DNA of 32,000 nucleotides from Legionella bononiensis (GCF_016786415.1 NZ_JADWVN010000013.1); one strand, 5' to 3'; positions 8,856 to 29,870 are shown, numbered from the stretch's first letter. The notes: generated from the sequence alone by a model not told the origin. Program-made: numbers and translations.

Positions 8856-8896
8856 ATGTGATATATTTCTCACATAAAGTTATAAATACATCACAT
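8856..8896. promoter_or_regulatory. Candidate XRE operator: ATGTGA-N8-TCACAT plus a third TCACAT half-site next to the start codon
   Basis: Inverted hexamers at 8856-8861 and 8870-8875, with another TCACAT at 8891-8896, 2 nt before ATG 8898. Confidence 0.35.
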
Positions 8897-8897
8897 T

Positions 8898-9113
8898 ATG
8901 AACATTCATTTTGAAACCAAAATCAAAGAATATAGAGCGAAGCTTAATTTAACCCAGGAATCATTGGCGCAACGAGTTGGCGTTAGTCGTGAAACGATTA
9001 ATTATTTAGAAAAGGGTAAATACAACCCATCCTTAAAATTGGCATTTTCTGTAGCACATGCGCTGCAAACGACCATTAATGAGTTATTTTTATTTAAATT
9101 TGAGGAGTTGTAA
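8898..9113 (+). CDS. XRE/Cro-type helix-turn-helix transcriptional regulator
   Basis: 71 aa. '[41 protein letters not shown]' is a canonical HTH_XRE pattern. Confidence 0.9.
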
Positions 9114-9550
9114 TGTTAGCTAATCCAAAATGGTTTAGACGTCGTAAGTACACAGGTTGGGGGTATACCCCAAATACCTGGCAAGGTTGGCTTTATGTGA
9201 TCGCATGGGTGAGTACCTTATTACTTTGTGCCTTAATAACGCGATGGCTAGGGTTTTCTACCCAGTCGCAACTCATTGCGATAGTGATTTTACTGGCCAT
9301 AATGATTGCTGATGCGTTAGATATGGCACGGAGAATGCCAAAAGATGAAAGGGAACGTATTCATGAAGCTTATGCTGAACGAAATGCTTGTTGGGTTATG
9401 ATTGCTGCTCTCTTGATTGGGCTTGTCTATCAATTGGTTGTAGGCTTAATCAATCATAACACTATTGCAATTGATCCCTTCATTCTTATAGCTTTACTAG
9501 GTGGCACAATTGCCAAGGCAATCACGAATTGGTACTTGATAGATAAATAA
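9113..9550 (+). CDS. Membrane protein coupled to the XRE regulator
   Basis: 145 aa with 4 predicted hydrophobic helices. The start overlaps the XRE stop (TAATG). Confidence 0.7.
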   Translation: MLANPKWFRRRKYTGWGYTPNTWQGWLYVIAWVSTLLLCALITRWLGFSTQSQLIAIVILLAIMIADALDMARRMPKDERERIHEAYAERNACWVMIAALLIGLVYQLVVGLINHNTIAIDPFILIALLGGTIAKAITNWYLIDK

Positions 9551-9784
9551 GCCATTGATGCATGTTTGAGAGCATCATAATCCAAAACAAGTCATTTGAA
9601 TCACAAGTGCCCGTATTAGACGAAGTCGTAATACGGGAATAACTTCAGCAACATCTCAAATTTATATTAAAAATCTAAGAATCAAATTAATTGGTGTAAC
9701 CTATTAAAATAGAAGCCTTAACTTTCATAATTCCTATCTATAGCTCATAATTGGCTATAACTCAGTTCGTGTTGGATAGATTAC

Positions 9785-10834
9785 ATGCAAGCTAAAAAAC
9801 AGATGCAATGGGCCGTTGTAGGTGCAGGCCCAGCCGGTATAGCTGCAGTAGGCAAATTGCTGGATAATGGTATTGCTCCTGAGAACCTGTTATGGATTGA
9901 TCCTCATTTTCACGTCGGTGATTTGGGTGGTCTTTGGAAGAACGTGTCCAGTAACACAACAGTTGCACTTTTTACCAACTTTTTGCGCAGCACTAATTCT
10001 TTTTCTTATCACGAAGCGCCAAATCAATTTCCAATCAATCATCTACCTTTGGACGAGACTTGCCTATTGAATGAAGTGGTGCAACCTTTGCAATGGATTT
10101 CCGATAAGCTTCGTCAACAAGTCGTCAGTGTGGAAGGCCGAGTTAACCGCATGGATCTGGTCGAGCGAGTCTGGAATTTGTCTACTGACACGCACAGCTT
10201 TAAAGCGCAAAACGTGATTTTGGCCACTGGCTCTGTTCCGTCCACTCTGAGTTATCCTGGTGTTGACGTCATTCCCTTTGAAACAGCCATAGACAAGGAG
10301 CGATTGTCACACATCATCAACAACAACGGCACCTACGCCGTATTCGGCTCTTCTCATTCGGCCATCATCATTGTGCGGCATCTGGTCGAATTGGGAGTTA
10401 AAAAAGTCATTAACTTTTACCGCTCCCCCTGTCGCTATGCAATCAATATGGGGGACTGGATTTTGTTTGACAATACTGGCCTAAAAGGTCAAACCGCTGC
10501 CTGGGCACGAGAACATATTGATGGCCGCTTGCCAGCCAATTTGCTTCGCTACAATACCCACGAAGATCATATAACCCGCTATCTTCCTGAATGCGACAAA
10601 GTCATTTACGCGGTGGGATTTCAACGTCGCAACACACTGATCATCGGTGATTACGAACACGCTGATTATAACCCCCATGTCGGTATCATAGGCCCAGGAC
10701 TATTCGGTTTTGGCATTGCCTACCCAGAATTGAAAACCGATCCCGCGGGTAATGAAGAGTTACAAGTGGGGTTGTGGAAATTCATGGTCTATCTGAACAG
10801 AGTATTGCCTATTTGGTTAAAGTACAGTACTTAA
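9785..10834 (+). CDS. FAD/NAD(P)-binding oxidoreductase (pyridine nucleotide-disulfide oxidoreductase-like)
   Basis: N-terminal dinucleotide-binding motif 'WAVVGAGPAGIAAVGKLL'. A second Rossmann-like motif 'YAVFGSSHSAIIIVRHL'. 'ILATGS' ATG-type motif. Confidence 0.8.
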   Translation: MQAKKQMQWAVVGAGPAGIAAVGKLLDNGIAPENLLWIDPHFHVGDLGGLWKNVSSNTTVALFTNFLRSTNSFSYHEAPNQFPINHLPLDETCLLNEVVQPLQWISDKLRQQVVSVEGRVNRMDLVERVWNLSTDTHSFKAQNVILATGSVPSTLSYPGVDVIPFETAIDKERLSHIINNNGTYAVFGSSHSAIIIVRHLVELGVKKVINFYRSPCRYAINMGDWILFDNTGLKGQTAAWAREHIDGRLPANLLRYNTHEDHITRYLPECDKVIYAVGFQRRNTLIIGDYEHADYNPHVGIIGPGLFGFGIAYPELKTDPAGNEELQVGLWKFMVYLNRVLPIWLKYST

Positions 10835-23437: not shown

Positions 23438-24289
23438 TTAATGTTTTAATTTATCCATGATAAAAAACTCCAGAGAGTCAATTGCTTTATTCGCCACCTC
23501 CTTTTTAATTAACGACACATGGATGTCTTTTAAAGAGGGGAGGAAATAATCATCCAGTTTATCCAGATAATTAGGAATCATACTGCGTTGTATGGCTGTA
23601 ATTCCCAAGCCTGCTCGAACTGCAGCCATTTTACCCGCGTAACTTGGGCTACTAAATGCCAATCGCCATTTTAAGTGATGTTTATTGAGAGACTCGATAA
23701 CGTTGCCGCGATAAACGCAAGGAGTAGGGGAAAGAATCAGTGGAATGGTGGATTTTTCATTAAGAATGGGGAGCAATTCTTTTTTCCCCACCCATTCCAC
23801 GGGTTCATTCCATACATTAACTCCTTCAGTTATTTGCTTTTTTTCAGTGGTTTTTATCAGGATTAAATCAAATTCGTCTTGATGAAATCGCTCAATTAAA
23901 TTCAGGGTTAAATCACACTCTACATTGAGCATGATTCGGGGGTGAAGTCTTGAAAACTCAACCAAGACCTCGGAAAGCATCATGGAGGCAAAGTCTTCTG
24001 GCAAACCAAAACGAAGTTCGCCTTGAAGCTCTGGCGTTTTAAAACGGTCAAGGGATTCTCGATGCAGCTCATAAATTCGTTTAGCATAACCTAAAAAAAG
24101 CTCCCCATCTGGGGTTAAGGACAATTCTCGTCCACGAGTAATTAACTGTTTTTCAATCAAATTTTCAAGTTTAGCAATTTGCTGACTTATTGCTGATTGA
24201 GTTCGGCCCACTCGCGCGGCTGCTTTAGTGAAGCTTTGAGTTTCCGCCACCGCTAAAAAGCATTGTAAGGTTACTGTATCTAGTGACAT
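23438..24289 (-). CDS. LysR family transcriptional regulator
   Basis: N-terminal HTH 'LQCFLAVAETQSFTKAAARVGRTQSAISQQIAKLE' plus a substrate-binding domain of typical length. Divergent from dabB and 21 nt upstream of the ABC-like gene. Confidence 0.9.
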   Translation of the reverse strand: MSLDTVTLQCFLAVAETQSFTKAAARVGRTQSAISQQIAKLENLIEKQLITRGRELSLTPDGELFLGYAKRIYELHRESLDRFKTPELQGELRFGLPEDFASMMLSEVLVEFSRLHPRIMLNVECDLTLNLIERFHQDEFDLILIKTTEKKQITEGVNVWNEPVEWVGKKELLPILNEKSTIPLILSPTPCVYRGNVIESLNKHHLKWRLAFSSPSYAGKMAAVRAGLGITAIQRSMIPNYLDKLDDYFLPSLKDIHVSLIKKEVANKAIDSLEFFIMDKLKH

Positions 24290-24302
24290 TAGAATTCCTA
24301 AT
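24288..24302. promoter_or_regulatory. LysR-type T-N11-A box (ATTAG-N5-CTAAT) in the LysR/dabB divergent region
   Basis: Perfect 5-N5-5 inverted repeat 'attagaattcctaat'. The T-N11-A core is 24289-24301. It overlaps the LysR start codon (24287-24289). Confidence 0.45.
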
Positions 24303-24377
24303 AGAAAACATAATTATTTTTAATTTCACTTATATCAGCATATCTAATATATTTCCATTGTAGCAAAACAATTTCTA

Positions 24378-25907
24378 ATGGGGAATGATGTGAATACAAT
24401 AGTCCTGATTTTTTTATTTATGATGTTAGCCTGCCCGATTATAGCGCTTGTCTTTAACTGCTTTTTAATATCCAGACCAATTATAGCAGCGCGCTGTGCG
24501 GGATATTGTATCGGAATTGGGTTTTTGATGGGGGTAGGGCTACTTTCTTATTTATCTTTAGCACAAAATCCTACAGTGTACTTATTAATCAGTCTTAATA
24601 CCCTGAGCCTTTTATTATGCAGTTTAGTGTTACTGGTCAGTTTTGTTGTGCATCGATTTTCACTAAGGTACATGCAGGGAGATAGACTCTACAGACGGTT
24701 TTTTCTACTTTTGTCGCTACTGACATTAGCCGCGTTACTCATGGTTCTTGCTGATAATTTATTTTTATTTTGGGGGGCTTGGTCGTTCTCAAATGTATTC
24801 CTAGTACTCTTGATGGTGCATAAGAAAGAATGGATAGCCTCCAAAAACTCCGGGCTGTTGGCCTTTTATACGTTTGCATCGGGAAGTGCCTGCTTATTAG
24901 TAGCCTTTATTCTTTTAAGTTTAGGTTACTCAATGAACTCTATTGAGGTGTTGACAAAGCTATCCCACCCGGTCCACGGGTCATTACTTACTTTATCTAT
25001 GGGTCTTATCTTGGTTGCAGCATTAACTCAGTCTGGTATAGTCCCTTTTCATCGTTGGCTTATCAGTTCGTTGAACTCCCCAACCCCAGTCTCTGCTTTA
25101 ATGCACGCAGGTCTTGTTAACGGTGGAGGAATTCTCCTCGTTAAATTTGCACCACTGATGATGCTTTATCCAGGTTTGCTCACTGTACTGTTTCTAGTCG
25201 GTTCTATATCCGCCTTACTGGGTACTGTTTGGAAGTTGATGCAGCATGATATAAAAAAAATGTTAGCTTGCTCTACTATGGCGCAAATGGGTTTTATGAT
25301 GATGCAATGTGGTGTGGGTTTATTTGCTGCGGCCATCGCTCATCTTTGTTGGCATGGATTATTCAAAGCCTATCTCTTTTTAAGTTCAGGCTCTGCGGTG
25401 AAACAAAAAAAATCAATGGTTAATGCTTCGCAAACCACCCCAATGATGCTCATCATCTCTCTTGTTGGTGGCATGGTCGCGATGACTTCCTTTGCTTTTG
25501 CCACTAATAAGATGATTTCCTTGTATGAGGCCAGTGCCTTTGTCTTGTTCTTTGCCTTCATAGGTGGATCGCAACTCATGCTCACTTGGGTTCGTAGTCA
25601 CCAAAGCGCTTTTAGTTTGGTATCAGGGCTAGTACTCGCGTTGTTTTCTGGTTTGATGTATGGCGCAAGCATTCAACTGATTCAGTGGTTGATTCCGAAT
25701 ATATCGATACTACAGGCACCCCAATTATCGTTAATCCATTGGACCGTAATGATTTTATTTGGTGCCTTATGGGCAGTATTTAATCTTGGAATACATCAAA
25801 GAATCGGCCAATCAAAACTAGGCTTTTGGCTTTACATGACCTTATTTAATTCAAGCCAGCCTTCCAAAACAACGGTTACTGCTTTACGAAACGATTACAA
25901 CTACTAA
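24378..25907 (+). CDS. dabB: DabB/MpsA: NuoL/MrpA-like proton-conducting membrane subunit of a DAB inorganic-carbon pump
   Basis: 509 aa and polytopic. 'PFHRWLISSLNSPTPVSALMHAGLVNGGGILLVKF' matches the PF00361 (NADH-quinone oxidoreductase chain L/M/N) core. It lies directly upstream of a DUF2309 gene. GTG 24390 is an alternative start. Confidence 0.85.
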   Translation: MGNDVNTIVLIFLFMMLACPIIALVFNCFLISRPIIAARCAGYCIGIGFLMGVGLLSYLSLAQNPTVYLLISLNTLSLLLCSLVLLVSFVVHRFSLRYMQGDRLYRRFFLLLSLLTLAALLMVLADNLFLFWGAWSFSNVFLVLLMVHKKEWIASKNSGLLAFYTFASGSACLLVAFILLSLGYSMNSIEVLTKLSHPVHGSLLTLSMGLILVAALTQSGIVPFHRWLISSLNSPTPVSALMHAGLVNGGGILLVKFAPLMMLYPGLLTVLFLVGSISALLGTVWKLMQHDIKKMLACSTMAQMGFMMMQCGVGLFAAAIAHLCWHGLFKAYLFLSSGSAVKQKKSMVNASQTTPMMLIISLVGGMVAMTSFAFATNKMISLYEASAFVLFFAFIGGSQLMLTWVRSHQSAFSLVSGLVLALFSGLMYGASIQLIQWLIPNISILQAPQLSLIHWTVMILFGALWAVFNLGIHQRIGQSKLGFWLYMTLFNSSQPSKTTVTALRNDYNY

Positions 25908-25925: not shown

Positions 25926-28214
25926 ATGACTACTGCAAAAATATTATCGAAACAAGATAGAGATAATAACGCAATTAAAAAATCAGAAATGGTCTATTAT
26001 CCGGCAAAAAATAAAGACCTTGAACTACAGGCTTTGGTGCACAATGCCGCCAAATGTATCGCGCCAGTCTGGCCGCTTGAAACTTTTATCGCTTGCAATC
26101 CATTACAAGGGTTTGAAGCACAATCGTTTGAAGAGGCATTAGCTCAAGGTGCTTTTAGGCGCCAAAGAGCCGAGCGTAACCTGCAACTCGAAGAGGTTAA
26201 TCTGCAAATGATTAAATGGTGCGGCGGCTTTTTTGATGCAGGACAAGGCAGCATTTATATGCCCAATCGTGAGAAAGGTTTTTATTTTGGATTCTTAAAA
26301 TTAGCTTATTTTGATAAGCAATTACACCACAATAAAAAACAAGCAAAAGAATTTCTGCAACAATTACCTGAATCGGCAGAAGAGGCACTTAAAATGTGTC
26401 TGCAAATACTTCATGTCCCTCAAGGTCAAGAAGAAGCCTTTCTTTCCCAAACACTTCGCTATTTACCGGGCTGGGCAGGGTTTGTTAAATGGAAGACGGA
26501 TTGGCAGAATTCAAAGAAACCAGAAGAAACGCAAGTCACTCTCACAGATTTTCTGGCAGTGCGCTTGGTGTTAACTTGCATCCTTTGGCCTGATGCGGCG
26601 AAGGAAAAAAAAAGCATCGACGATGGCTCTTTGGTTAAAAAAGTGCTGACGAAATTAAAAAGTAATGAGGATTCCTATCGGCAAAAGTTATTAAGTCTGC
26701 TTTTGCCAGAGGTAAAGAAAGGAGAAGATCATCTTCCGCGCAGAAATGCTCAGTTGGTTTTTTGTATTGATGTGCGTTCCGAGCCATTTCGCCGTGCTAT
26801 AGAGTCTTTAGGATCTTATGAAACCTTTGGTTTTGCCGGATTTTTTGGACTTCCTGTGCGTATCGATGAATTTGATACCAATAAAAATAAAGAGTGTTGT
26901 CCGGTCTTGTTAAAACCAAAATATGCGATTAAAGAAATGTCGGCTGCTGCAAATAATGACGATTTTGAACGTTATCAGCGAGGAAAGGCATTCATTAATC
27001 GTTGTAAAAGCCTTTATACGCAACTCAAGAACAATGTGTCGACCCCTTTTGCCTTAGTGGAGTCTTTAGGGCTTTGGTGTGGTTTGAATATGATTTTAAA
27101 ATCGTTATCACCGGAATTAAGTCATCATTCAGTATCAGCCATCACGGGTTGGCTGAAACCTGCGATTCCGACCAAAGTAGCTTATGAATTAAGTGAAACG
27201 GATGCGGAGCAAGGTTTATCATTACACGAGCAGATTAGTTATGCTGAAACGGTATTGCGCCTTATGGGGCTGACTTCAGGTTTTGCAAAACTCATTATTC
27301 TCTGTGGTCATGGAAGTACTACCGAAAACAATCCTTATGCTTCAGCTCTGGATTGCGGCGCCTGCGGTGGGAATCATGGAGGTATAAATGCGCGATTATT
27401 GGCGTCCATTCTTAATAAACCTGAAGTTCGACGAGGCCTGGAAGACTGTGGCATGCACATCCCCTTGGATACGGTATTTTACGGAGCACAACATAATACA
27501 ACTACGGATTCAGTCGAACTTTACACACAAGATGTAGCCAAACCTATCTACCCTGAGCTTATAAGCCAACTGCAAAACGATTTAAAGGAAGCAAGGCTTA
27601 TAACCAACCAAGAGCGGAGAGTACAATTGCAGAGTTGCTCTTCTCATAAAGACATCACAAGAAGAAGCATGGACTGGTCTGAAACACGACCTGAATGGGG
27701 CTTGGCACGCAATGCTGCCTTTATTGTTGCTCCTCGGCACCTAACAAAAAATATCTCTCTTGATGGTCGCTGTTTTTTGCATTCTTATCGGTATGAGCAA
27801 GACAGTGAAGGCACATTTCTCGAGACCATTCTGACAGCGCCCATGGTGGTGGCTGAATGGATAAATACCCAATATTTATTTTCTACTTTAGATAATGTTG
27901 CCTTTGGAAGTGGAAGCAAAATTACCCACAATGTGGTTGGAACCATTGGCGTGATGCAGGGGAATGGAAGTGATCTCATGCATGGTCTTCCTCTGCAATC
28001 GGTCATGAGTTCTGATATGGAACCCTATCATGAGCCACAGCGTTTATTGACCCTTGTTTATGCCCCTAAAGAGATGGTTTCTCAAGTGATTGAAAAACAC
28101 TCCATCTTAAAAACCTTATTTTTTAACCAATGGGTGCACTTGATAGTTATCGACCCGAAGAATCAAGGAGTTTATCAACTCACCCAATCGGGTGAGTGGA
28201 TTTTAGTTGAATAA
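25926..28214 (+). CDS. dabA: DabA/MpsB: DUF2309 family, beta-carbonic-anhydrase-like subunit of the DAB inorganic-carbon pump
   Basis: 762 aa. 'PLETFIACNPLQG', 'FCIDVRSEPFRR' (CxDxR; C280, D282) and 'CGHGSTTENNPYASALDCGACGG' (H462, C477) are hallmark DUF2309 motifs. GAAGGGG RBS. Confidence 0.9.
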   Translation: MTTAKILSKQDRDNNAIKKSEMVYYPAKNKDLELQALVHNAAKCIAPVWPLETFIACNPLQGFEAQSFEEALAQGAFRRQRAERNLQLEEVNLQMIKWCGGFFDAGQGSIYMPNREKGFYFGFLKLAYFDKQLHHNKKQAKEFLQQLPESAEEALKMCLQILHVPQGQEEAFLSQTLRYLPGWAGFVKWKTDWQNSKKPEETQVTLTDFLAVRLVLTCILWPDAAKEKKSIDDGSLVKKVLTKLKSNEDSYRQKLLSLLLPEVKKGEDHLPRRNAQLVFCIDVRSEPFRRAIESLGSYETFGFAGFFGLPVRIDEFDTNKNKECCPVLLKPKYAIKEMSAAANNDDFERYQRGKAFINRCKSLYTQLKNNVSTPFALVESLGLWCGLNMILKSLSPELSHHSVSAITGWLKPAIPTKVAYELSETDAEQGLSLHEQISYAETVLRLMGLTSGFAKLIILCGHGSTTENNPYASALDCGACGGNHGGINARLLASILNKPEVRRGLEDCGMHIPLDTVFYGAQHNTTTDSVELYTQDVAKPIYPELISQLQNDLKEARLITNQERRVQLQSCSSHKDITRRSMDWSETRPEWGLARNAAFIVAPRHLTKNISLDGRCFLHSYRYEQDSEGTFLETILTAPMVVAEWINTQYLFSTLDNVAFGSGSKITHNVVGTIGVMQGNGSDLMHGLPLQSVMSSDMEPYHEPQRLLTLVYAPKEMVSQVIEKHSILKTLFFNQWVHLIVIDPKNQGVYQLTQSGEWILVE

Positions 28215-28230: not shown

Positions 28231-28596
28231 ATGAGTGTGATTAAAGTTCAAGAACGAAAAGATATTGGGATTAACCTGCATCCAATGAAAAAAATTGAGA
28301 TTATTGTTGCTGGAGAACATGAGCACCTGATAACGTCTATGATGGACGAGGCATCAGTGACAGGGTATACATTGATACGAAATGTTTCTGGAAAAGGGCA
28401 TCATGGTTTTCATGAAGGAAAAATGATGTTTAATGACAAATCCTCATTAGTCATGTTTATCGCCGTTGCACCTGAAGAAGTGATCGTAACCTTGGCTTTA
28501 GGCATGAAAACCTTGTTTCAGAACGAGTCTGGGGTGATGTTTGTTTCCGATGTTTCGGTTGCAAGGCTTGATTATTTTCACATTATGAATACTTAA
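28231..28596 (+). CDS. PII-like (GlnB-fold) small signalling protein
   Basis: 'MKKIEIIVAGEHEHLITSMMDEASVTGYTLIRNVSGKGHHG...' has the beta-alpha-beta PII layout with a T-loop-like 'SGKGHHGFHEG'. GAGGAG RBS 6 nt before ATG 28231. The ORF-track TTG at 28207 overlaps the dabA stop. Confidence 0.7.
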   Translation: MSVIKVQERKDIGINLHPMKKIEIIVAGEHEHLITSMMDEASVTGYTLIRNVSGKGHHGFHEGKMMFNDKSSLVMFIAVAPEEVIVTLALGMKTLFQNESGVMFVSDVSVARLDYFHIMNT

Positions 28597-28598
28597 TC

Positions 28599-29432
28599 AT
28601 GTACTATAAAAATCAACATGTTTTATTAGCATCCAAGCATGAAAAGGAACAAGCAATAGCTGAACCTTTTATGAAAAGGCTGTCGTGCACTTTAAATGTG
28701 CACGATTTTGATACCGATCAGTTTGGAACGTTTACGGGAGAGATTGCACGGACTCTGAGTCCCTATGAAACCTGTCTCTTAAAGGCTAAAACAGCGGCAA
28801 AACGTTATAACTATAGGCTTGCTGTAGCCTCTGAGGGAAGTTTTGGGCCTCATCCCGCATTTCCGTTTGTACCAAGCGATCATGAGTTGATGGTGTTTAT
28901 TGATAGAGAGCATGACTGGATTATTGCAGAGCAACTAGTAAGTCAAAAAACAAATTATGCGATGTTAACGGTTAACAAGAATACAGATATTGATGCTTTT
29001 CTTAAACAAGTTCATTTTCCGACTCACGCACTCATTGTACAAACAAGTTCTGATAATCGTGTTGTGGCTAAGGGCATTAATAATTTAGAACACTTGACCC
29101 ACCATCTCGCTCTTGGTTTTAAAAATGAGAAAGAACTTCTTCTAGCAACGGATATGCGAGCTATGATGAATCCTACTCGAATGACAGTGATTGGTGAGTT
29201 GGCTGATAAACTAACGCAACGAATTGCTAACCTTTGTGTTCGATGTGAGTGTCCAGGTTTTGGATTCAAGTCAACTAAAGGCACTTTACCTTGCTCGCTT
29301 TGTGGTTCCCCAACTTCATTATATGAGGAAGAAGTGTGGGGTTGTATTGCCTGTCAACATCAAGAGTACAAAATGAGAAAAGATGGTTTGTTAAAAGCCG
29401 ATCCAGCTTATTGTGATTATTGTAACCCTTAA
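28599..29432 (+). CDS. Uncharacterised protein with C-terminal double zinc ribbon (4 x CxxC)
   Basis: 277 aa. The start is 2 nt after the PII-like stop. Candidate conserved blocks 'DTDQFGTFTGE', 'ASEGSFGPHP' and 'ATDMRAMMNPTR'. C-terminus 'CVRCEC...CSLC...CIAC...CDYC'. Confidence 0.8.
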   Translation: MYYKNQHVLLASKHEKEQAIAEPFMKRLSCTLNVHDFDTDQFGTFTGEIARTLSPYETCLLKAKTAAKRYNYRLAVASEGSFGPHPAFPFVPSDHELMVFIDREHDWIIAEQLVSQKTNYAMLTVNKNTDIDAFLKQVHFPTHALIVQTSSDNRVVAKGINNLEHLTHHLALGFKNEKELLLATDMRAMMNPTRMTVIGELADKLTQRIANLCVRCECPGFGFKSTKGTLPCSLCGSPTSLYEEEVWGCIACQHQEYKMRKDGLLKADPAYCDYCNP

Positions 29433-29615: not shown

Positions 29616-29837
29616 CTACACTGATTTCAATTTTTTCTCAGTTGCAGCCTCTCTTTTGGGAATTCTGATTTCAAGAACTCCATGAGCGTACCGTGCAGTG
29701 ATTTTTGCATCATCCGCAGTTTGAGGAAGACTAAAGCGACGATAAAATTGCCCAAAGGGTACGATTCCAACATCAATAGATGTAAAGACAAAGAATTCCA
29801 ATCTAATTATTACCTTTAAATAACAGGCTGTATCCAC
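29616..29837 (-). pseudogene. Truncated or internally deleted Hsp20/alpha-crystallin small heat-shock protein remnant
   Basis: Only the C-terminal third of an alpha-crystallin domain is recognisable ('FGQFYRRFSLPQTADDAKITARYAHGVLEIRIPK'). The upstream 30 codons do not fit the fold. GTG start with no RBS. Confidence 0.5.
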
Positions 29838-29870
29838 TGTTTTAAAGATCTGAAGTTATGACTTCTGAAT

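Follow-up and report, generated by a model that had tools for sequence, protein, structure and literature searches.

The last gene of a predicted LysR-controlled dab operon in Legionella bononiensis encodes a DUF6671 protein, and members of this family sit next to inorganic-carbon genes in many unrelated bacteria. On balance we favor reading the protein as a soluble accessory of inorganic-carbon supply, made of an ITPase-like domain and a zinc-ribbon tail, that binds a nucleotide and most likely hydrolyses it. The operon was found in a window of 32,000 nucleotides, by which we mean the whole stretch of DNA that was analysed.

Current accounts of the bicarbonate accumulation systems DAB and SbtA give them two or three proteins. 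With their help pathogens and other heterotrophs can grow in air-level CO2, and both are being transferred to crops and industrial strains as minimal parts for carbon concentration. The repeated joining of DUF6671 to these systems, its exchange between transporters, and its fusion to DabA point to an unrecognised need during bicarbonate accumulation.

The operon and its last gene

The features of the region are collected in Table 1. The DUF6671 gene reads as an intact open reading frame, and that it is a real gene is virtually certain. The earlier note had placed its ATG 2 nt past the stop of the PII-like gene, and the sequence bears this out: the TAA at 28594-28596 is followed by the two nucleotides tc and then by the ATG. 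By inspection, no Shine-Dalgarno sequence of its own is visible upstream of this start. Because of the 2-nt spacing and the missing ribosome-binding site, DUF6671 is likely to be co-transcribed with the PII-like gene and translationally coupled to it by termination-reinitiation. Co-transcription and possible coupling had been proposed before, and the proposal gains from the relatives of this gene, whose junctions are equally tight or overlapping.

Table 1. Features of the dab operon region of L. bononiensis (positions in the window)
Feature	Position	Strand	Remarks
LysR-family regulator	23438..24289	-	divergent from dabB; Pfam HTH_1 and LysR_substrate
Candidate LysR box	24289..24303	.	lysR-dabB spacer; dyad ATTAG-N5-CTAAT (T-N11-A type), read from sequence
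Promoter-like site	24325..24353	+	lysR-dabB region; predicted by consensus scan
dabB	24378..25907	+	NuoL/MrpA-like proton-translocating subunit; Pfam PF00361, PF00662
dabA	25926..28214	+	beta-carbonic-anhydrase-like subunit of the DAB pump; Pfam PF10070 (DabA), 787 bits
Terminator-like hairpin	28178..28197	+	8-bp stem with 5 G-C pairs; within the dabA 3′ end, just before the PII-like gene; consensus scan
PII-like gene	28231..28596	+	GlnB/SbtB fold; Pfam P-II PF00543, 77 bits
DUF6671 gene	28599..29432	+	277 aa and stop codon
DUF6671 N-terminal domain	28599..29234	+	residues 1-212; predicted ITPase-like alpha/beta fold, invariant charged pocket
DUF6671 C-terminal Cys-rich module	29235..29432	+	residues 213-277 and stop codon; four invariant CxxC pairs

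From this arrangement, dabB, dabA, the PII-like gene and DUF6671 appear to form one operon under LysR control, with DUF6671 as its final cistron. Orthologs of the LysR regulator, with 52-87% identity, hold the same place in the dabBA-DUF6671 cassettes of other phyla. The ATG of the PII-like gene stands behind a GAGGAG ribosome-binding site, and there is an alternative TTG start at 28207. The hairpin at the end of dabA is a candidate attenuator or processing site that could set the ratio of dabBA to PII-DUF6671. A second DabA, of the long type, is encoded elsewhere in the L. bononiensis genome, with no DUF6671 beside it.

Family membership, conservation and fold

The protein had seemed not to be assignable to any family, which turns out not to be the case. 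It matches Pfam PF20376 (DUF6671), a catalogued but unstudied family, with 198.9 bits for a cut-off of 23.8, over residues 63-277 and profile positions 2-217 of 217. A search of NCBIfam returned no match, and a literature search found no paper naming DUF6671. A word-indexed search with the protein collected 3260 homologs, and an exhaustive search 1616 clusters at 50% identity (both at E ≤ 1e-3), which supports a conservation of the reading frame and its motifs far beyond chance. The nearest relatives are other Legionella proteins (up to 86% identity), and the family is known from at least eight phyla.

We measured conservation in an alignment of 61 sequences with 35-86% identity to the query. 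It has 23 invariant columns, all of them present in the L. bononiensis protein. Eight are cysteines, conserved in 61/61 sequences; the others are H14, K16, G43, F45, R51, K62, E79, E96, D185, M186, R187, A188, N191, R194 and P277, and E48 is nearly invariant. The motif blocks and the four CxxC pairs quoted in the earlier note are all there: DTDQFGTFTGEIAR at residues 38-51, VASEGSFGPHPAFPF at 76-90, LATDMRAMMNPTR at 182-194, and the pairs C213/C216, C232/C235, C249/C252 and C272/C275. The protein, of about 31 kDa, lacks a Walker A motif. Its Kyte-Doolittle hydropathy averages at most 0.61 over any 19 residues, no membrane segment is predicted, and the protein is expected to be soluble. In all this it is a typical member of a family without a described function.

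An AlphaFold2 model built from the 61-sequence alignment has pLDDT 95.8 and pTM 0.89. We compared it with the PDB using Foldseek, as had been suggested, with the understanding that the query is a predicted model and not a solved structure. The best matches are to YjjX (1u14 and 1u5w; E 5e-4, probability 1.0, TM 0.52-0.54 on the target), and the next ones to VC0702, to HAM1 TM0159, and to Maf YceF and BsMaf (4jhc, 1ex2). Together these matches span E-values of 5e-4 to 5e-3 and probabilities of 0.9-1.0 (0.93-1.0 for YjjX, HAM1 and Maf), with a moderate TM of 0.37-0.54 on the target. A second group consists of CinA C-terminal/PncC domains (6l19, 5kvk, 2a9s), with probability 0.9-1.0 over about 124 columns and TM 0.33-0.40.

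At the level of sequence profiles the relationship is much harder to see. None of ten family members matches the Pfam models for HAM1 (PF01725), Maf (PF02545) or YjjX (PF01931), even at E ≤ 10. Because sequence HMMs miss the relationship, we used profile-profile comparison with hhalign, with alignments for HAM1, Maf, YjjX and controls built from genome loci. DUF6671 and HAM1 pair with P = 1.6e-4 (probability 51%), while nine unrelated families taken from the same loci as controls score P of 0.21-0.53. For reference, the accepted pairs YjjX-HAM1 and HAM1-Maf score 5.9e-4 and 0.009, and accepted member pairs overall range from 6e-4 to 0.54. The comparisons of DUF6671 with Maf (P 0.086) and with YjjX (P 0.28-0.31, with a YjjX alignment of 6 sequences) are not significant.

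The HAM1 pairing places the DUF6671 motif 'laTxHxKE' opposite 'lATgNxGKxxE' of HAM1, in the first strand-loop-helix, and the second helix of DUF6671, which carries K62, opposite the 'NAxxKA' helix. Residue equivalence is reliable for about the first 75 residues or columns and of low confidence beyond. With that reservation past column 75, K16, K62 and E79 lie within one or two positions of the HAM1 catalytic residues, which are a phosphate-binding Lys after strand 1, a Lys in helix 2 and acidic residues closing strand 3. The low-confidence extension sets E79 at the HAM1 catalytic Asp pair, where the third strand ends, and T193-R194 at the C-terminal His-Arg.

Taking the model and the profiles together, we hold with good confidence that residues 1-212 adopt the ITPase-like fold, which is that of three groups of nucleotide pyrophosphatases (HAM1/RdgB, Maf and YjjX). 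At most, this domain would represent a new family within the ITPase-like superfamily, strongly diverged and outside HAM1, Maf and YjjX. The earlier impression that the N-terminal motifs look like an enzyme site or ligand pocket is well matched by a conserved charged pocket in a domain that both Foldseek and hhalign relate to nucleotide enzymes. The fold assignment also turns DUF6671 into a concrete biochemical hypothesis, that of nucleotide binding or hydrolysis.

In the model, the Cys-rich module at residues 213-277 forms short beta-hairpins. Sequence searches of the PDB, with single sequences and with profiles, gave only marginal zinc-ribbon matches for it, such as eL37 (E 0.03) and Rpb12, and one family member has a weak match to Pfam Zn_Ribbon_YjdM (E 9e-4). 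The simplest reading is that the module makes two Cys4 knuckles of zinc-ribbon type, with a metal that is presumably zinc. The two zinc ribbons that had been proposed from the four CxxC pairs are thus compatible with the eight invariant cysteines.

Linkage to inorganic-carbon genes

Among 101 Legionellaceae genomes, DUF6671 is present in 42, DabA in 48, and both in 38 (Fisher p = 6e-14 for the co-occurrence, in kin that are not independent of each other). In 38/38 genomes having both, dabA is followed directly and on the same strand by DUF6671, at a distance of ~650 nt if the PII-like gene stands between them and ~300 nt otherwise. Since the PII-like gene intervenes in only part of the Legionellaceae, and is absent from the rest of the sample, the partner that DUF6671 keeps in this family is dabA and not PII. 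Across phyla, the PII-like gene of this operon type appears in 7 of 80 loci, all from Legionellales records.

Four of the 42 genomes with DUF6671 are exceptions to this arrangement. In three of them the gene is at a contig end or the genome is incomplete. The remaining one, a Legionellaceae genome 97% complete, has no DabA, and its DUF6671 gene overlaps a beta-carbonic anhydrase gene at the latter's end, with an ArsR-type regulator ahead; this adjacency was seen once among all loci examined, and should be taken as an anecdote. Conversely, 10 of the 48 DabA-bearing genomes have no DUF6671.

For a broader view, we compared the neighbourhoods of 80 loci, out of roughly 580 genome loci, from at least eight phyla. 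As the earlier note had suggested looking for, homologs do recur beside DabA across phyla: DabA is within 24/80 loci, plus 3 others cut by contig ends, and it is usually directly upstream with a tight or overlapping junction. The dabA-linked lineages include Melainabacteria, Berkiella, Thiotrichales, Haliea, Aestuariivirga, Parvibaculum, Bradyrhizobium, Prosthecobacter and Sulfobacillus; the order dabA then DUF6671 is thus also seen in Verrucomicrobiota and in Alpha- and Gammaproteobacteria. In another 10 of the 80 loci, all without Dab, the gene is adjacent to or near SbtA (PF05982), a bicarbonate transporter unrelated to Dab. Linkage to SbtA is seen in Bacteroidota, cyanobacteria and proteobacteria, and in cyanobacterial loci an SbtB-like PII stands beside SbtA. 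We left out of the count of carbon transporters a cyanobacterial ABC transporter of the NrtABCD/CmpABCD type that adjoins DUF6671, since it may carry either nitrate or bicarbonate.

Homologs in neighbourhoods with no link to dabAB had been named in advance as the finding that would speak against a connection. Many homologs do lie away from dabAB, which bears out half of that objection; a large share of them, though, lie beside another inorganic-carbon gene.

We also looked at random samples of genomes. DUF6671 is rare in Pseudomonadota, with 4/401 genomes over the cut-off, L. bononiensis included; one of the three other carriers has SbtA directly upstream. In Bacteroidota, the gene is found in 10/251 genomes, and all ten full-length copies are in clusters of isocitrate dehydrogenase (IDH), DUF6671, Sua5, SbtA and PyrC genes, with SbtA itself in the cluster in 5/10. 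SbtA is encoded in 8/10 Bacteroidota genomes with DUF6671 and in 63/241 without it (p = 8e-4, with related genomes that are not independent). Seen from the other side, 63 of the 71 SbtA-bearing Bacteroidota genomes do without DUF6671. Since DUF6671 is missing from most genomes with DabA or SbtA, the pumps are not dependent on it, and it is an optional accessory, not a core subunit.

The other recurrent neighbours in the 80 loci are PyrC (17), a long IDH (12), Sua5/TsaC (11), PurE-PurK (3), and LysR regulators. Sua5 is directly downstream of DUF6671 in 9 loci, from Gammaproteobacteria and Bacteroidota; dihydroorotases of two different types adjoin it in Alphaproteobacteria and Bacteroidota; and PurE-PurK is downstream in its three loci. 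Genes for BioA and for an M20 amidohydrolase were found nearby as well. Some genomes carry two type-II-like copies of PyrC, so that the one beside DUF6671 need not be the housekeeping copy.

This company, BioA and the amidohydrolase included, would suit an enzyme that works with Sua5/TsaC, PyrC or PurEK in a bicarbonate- or carbamoyl-dependent pathway, on an intermediate of the carboxy- or carbamoyl-adenylate type, with transporters nearby only since such pathways consume bicarbonate. However, many dabA-linked loci, that of L. bononiensis among them, have none of these enzymes, and where DUF6671 is fused to another protein the partner is always DabA, never Sua5, PyrC or PurEK. No enzyme with an ITPase-like fold is known to act on substrates of that type. 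We consider such a pathway enzyme quite unlikely.

The fusion is a stable one. One locus has a single open reading frame of 1035 aa joining DabA and DUF6671, and a search among long proteins found 23 with a DUF6671 domain, of which 23/23 are DabA plus DUF6671, with 64-100% identity. The DUF6671 domain is C-terminal to DabA, one of the fusions is named Parachlamydia, and the lineage is Parachlamydia-like. An AlphaFold2 model of the natural fusion, built from an alignment that mixed paired and unpaired sequences, has both domains well folded. With a pTM of 0.69 and a disordered linker, it shows no confident docking between them and speaks neither for nor against it.

Could the protein be a sensor instead of an enzyme? 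SbtB regulates SbtA, and by analogy DUF6671 could be a non-catalytic nucleotide sensor that attaches by its zinc ribbons to DabA from the cytosolic side, or to a different partner, and so switches inorganic-carbon uptake on or off. The stable fusion in the chlamydial lineage and the tight or overlapping dabA-DUF6671 junctions fit with it, as does the pairing with a PII-like nucleotide sensor in Legionellaceae; and the KomBC complex, in which dITP is sensed by a HAM1-like domain, is among the Foldseek matches of the model. But all the acidic and basic residues of the pocket are kept without variation from phylum to phylum, a pattern seen more often in catalytic sites. Moreover, the same orthologs are found at SbtA, beta-carbonic anhydrase or transporter-less loci, making a DabA-specific docking surface unlikely, and the model of the fusion offers no confident interface. 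Overall we find the sensor unlikely.

A shared neighbourhood could also simply be inherited. To see how often the linkage has changed, we followed it on a tree of 95 family members inferred by maximum likelihood, with 94 loci classed by their neighbours. The label 'Dab-linked' changes at least 13 times on this tree, and at least 7 of the changes are forced by well-supported branches. Most direct of all are two sister orthologs from Aestuariivirga (64% identical, branch support 99): LysR-SbtA precedes one, and DabB-DabA the other! Because of the label changes and of this transporter swap, we conclude that DUF6671 tracks inorganic-carbon supply as such, and not the structure of one transporter, which argues against both a DabA-specific subunit and zinc delivery to DabA.

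The same tree bears on whether DUF6671 is a housekeeping nucleotide 'house-cleaning' enzyme, with carbon-gene synteny inherited by transfer of whole cassettes and no functional link. In its favour, this fold family is noted for house-cleaning enzymes, and about a quarter of the classed loci (25 of 94) have none of the recurrent neighbours. The LysR-dabB-dabA-DUF6671 cassette also looks mobile, because its LysR and DabA share 47-57% identity between Legionella and Prosthecobacter. Inheritance of this kind does not easily give linkage to two unrelated transporter families and a beta-carbonic anhydrase, nor the well-supported independent label changes and the swap between sister orthologs, nor a DabA fusion kept over the whole range of identities observed. 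We give this explanation little credence. The suggestion of an unrelated passenger gene is likewise not supported, in view of the recurrent independent linkage and the stable fusion.

The swap weighs as well on the earlier suggestion of a metal delivery factor, by which the protein would insert zinc (or another metal) into the beta-carbonic-anhydrase-type site of DabA, or store it. There are eight invariant cysteines to consider, and zinc enzymes among the neighbours (DabA, one beta-carbonic anhydrase, dihydroorotase). Still, orthologs within one genus stand beside SbtA, which has no zinc site, and the SbtA-linked loci are without a zinc enzyme. Four CxxC pairs make, most simply, two closed structural Cys4 sites; the GTPase/Walker A motif of the COG0523 zinc chaperones is missing; and the conserved N-terminal pocket looks like that of a nucleotide enzyme. 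We regard zinc delivery as highly improbable. A pump subunit, a zinc chaperone and a passenger gene are then all unlikely descriptions of DUF6671, and its linkage to inorganic-carbon genes is very probably functional.

Proposed role and comparison with known systems

From the fold and the linkage we infer the catalysis, the class of ligand, the zinc and the physiological role of the protein, in the following way. The N-terminal ITPase-like domain would bring together basic and acidic residues that do not vary in the family (H14, K16, R51, K62, E79, E96, D185, R187, N191, R194), several of which seem to fall roughly at the phosphate- and metal-binding places of the HAM1, Maf and YjjX enzymes. 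With it, DUF6671 would bind in the cytosol a nucleotide, or a nucleotide-like phosphorylated compound, and would most likely hydrolyse it with a divalent metal. The zinc-ribbon tail may be a structural or a docking module. The level of the compound would matter while bicarbonate accumulates, and the accessory role would be independent of the transporter used, whether DabBA or SbtA. Taken alone, nucleotide hydrolysis by the protein is a putative activity that we find quite possible but somewhat short of probable.

More specifically, and tentatively, we propose that DUF6671 is an inorganic-carbon-linked nucleotide hydrolase required for normal growth in air-level CO2, which either destroys a nucleotide that turns harmful at high cytosolic bicarbonate or cleaves a signalling nucleotide. 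The harmful species could be, for instance, carbonate-radical-oxidised, carboxylated or carbamoylated nucleotides. The signal, cleared by DUF6671, could be a nucleotide that tells the pump and the PII-like partner about carbon status. We hold this specific proposal with rather low confidence. If true, it would make DUF6671 a general, transporter-independent third player of bacterial bicarbonate accumulation.

How does the protein compare with what has been described? It resembles the ITPase-like superfamily in its alpha/beta fold (by Foldseek), and its beta1-loop-helix and Lys-bearing second helix align with those of HAM1. Where HAM1 has Asn, Lys and Asp, DUF6671 has His, Lys and Glu. It also has a larger second lobe and the 65-residue double Cys4 tail, absent from HAM1, Maf and YjjX alike, and its context is carbon uptake, whereas theirs is general nucleotide sanitation. 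The CinA C-terminal/PncC NMN deamidase domain binds a nucleotide, as DUF6671 is proposed to do, but it aligns with lower coverage, and the likeness should be read as one of fold neighbourhood, not of membership.

With zinc metallochaperones of the COG0523 type, which are marked by a P-loop GTPase domain and a CxCC metal motif, the protein has no match in Pfam or NCBIfam. With SbtB, and with the PII-like protein of its own operon, it has in common that it is small, apparently soluble, placed beside an inorganic-carbon transporter, and expected to bind a nucleotide; the fold and the family are unrelated, and this operon carries both a PII-like gene and DUF6671.

Among DAB components themselves, the protein has no Pfam match to the subunit models PF10070 and PF00361. 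DabA, DabB and DabC, a small membrane protein, are the only components described in two cryo-EM preprints of 2026 on DAB1 and DAB2. DabC is the third DAB1 subunit of Thermocrinis albus and Halothiobacillus neapolitanus, a small transmembrane protein packed on DabB (bioRxiv 10.64898/2026.05.01.722082). The earlier statement that no such component belongs to the described DAB or MpsAB systems therefore agrees with the literature search and with DabC being a membrane protein. We considered whether DUF6671 might be DabC and rejected it, as DabC is transmembrane and DUF6671 has no hydrophobic segment. Both are extra genes in a dab operon, but DUF6671, by prediction a soluble protein, is encoded after dabA, and it is found with SbtA as well.

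DabA copies in Legionellaceae

The genome that contains the window carries a second DabA, of the long type, which lies outside the window (contig C27, 241598-244027) and is an 890-aa open frame with a full-length Pfam match. This copy has no adjoining DUF6671 gene, and DUF6671 is single-copy in the genome. In five Legionellaceae genomes (G032, G033, G057, G060 and G078), the DabA match is broken into two or three reading frames, and some of these split matches contain internal stops, a pattern that suggests a frameshifted or decaying dabA. DUF6671 is still found 3′ of 4 of the 5 split genes.

Sequence elements in and around the operon

The predicted hairpin listed in the table sits within the final dabA codons, immediately 5′ of the PII-like start, and it may leave PII and DUF6671 less strongly expressed than dabBA. 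Upstream of dabB, the perfect dyad is a candidate LysR binding box. At the other end of the operon, the Hsp20 remnant appears to be what is left of a small heat-shock gene.

Features of the window operon and of Bacteroidota DUF6671 loci (L, locus; G616, genome; C, contig)
Feature	Position	Strand	Description
Perfect dyad	24289-24303		ATTAG-N5-CTAAT (T-N11-A type), lysR-dabB spacer, abutting lysR start codon
Promoter-like site	24325-24353		For dabB
Terminator-like hairpin	28178-28197	+	8-bp stem, 5 G-C pairs, weak T tail
Hsp20/alpha-crystallin domain	29616-29855	-	C-terminal part only; 3′ of DUF6671, convergent
Small ORF	L074:7682-7981		IDH-DUF6671 intergenic
Small ORF	L078:7451-7993		IDH-DUF6671 intergenic
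Small ORF	L084:7040-7351		IDH-DUF6671 intergenic
DUF6671 copy	G616 C9:526004
DUF6671 copy	G616 C3:90273
DUF6671 copy	G616 C3:67679

Neighbors of DUF6671 in other genomes

The stretch separating the IDH gene from DUF6671 in Bacteroidota operons repeatedly holds small ORFs, 82-103 aa long; those at the positions in the table have no family match in Pfam or NCBIfam. The Bacteroidota genome G616 has two full-length DUF6671 genes plus one partial, divergent copy.

In three loci, from two Legionella genomes and a Berkiella genome (L036, L037 and L046, at about 8860-10470), the gene directly 3′ of DUF6671 encodes PurE (AIR carboxylase, by Pfam), and a PurK-sized gene comes next. In Hyphomicrobium, CysD, the sulfate adenylyltransferase small subunit, is encoded immediately 5′ of DUF6671 (L086:7024-7929), and CysD relatives are found within a few kb in loci L053 and L071. 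CysD is a further ATP-pyrophosphatase-type neighbor of the carbon-uptake region.

Of the two type-II-like PyrC copies in Methylocystis rosea, one adjoins DUF6671 and the other is about 12 kb from DabA. In Bradyrhizobium (L087:2821-8849) the gene order is dabB-dabA-pyrC-DUF6671, which places a dihydroorotase gene inside a DAB operon.
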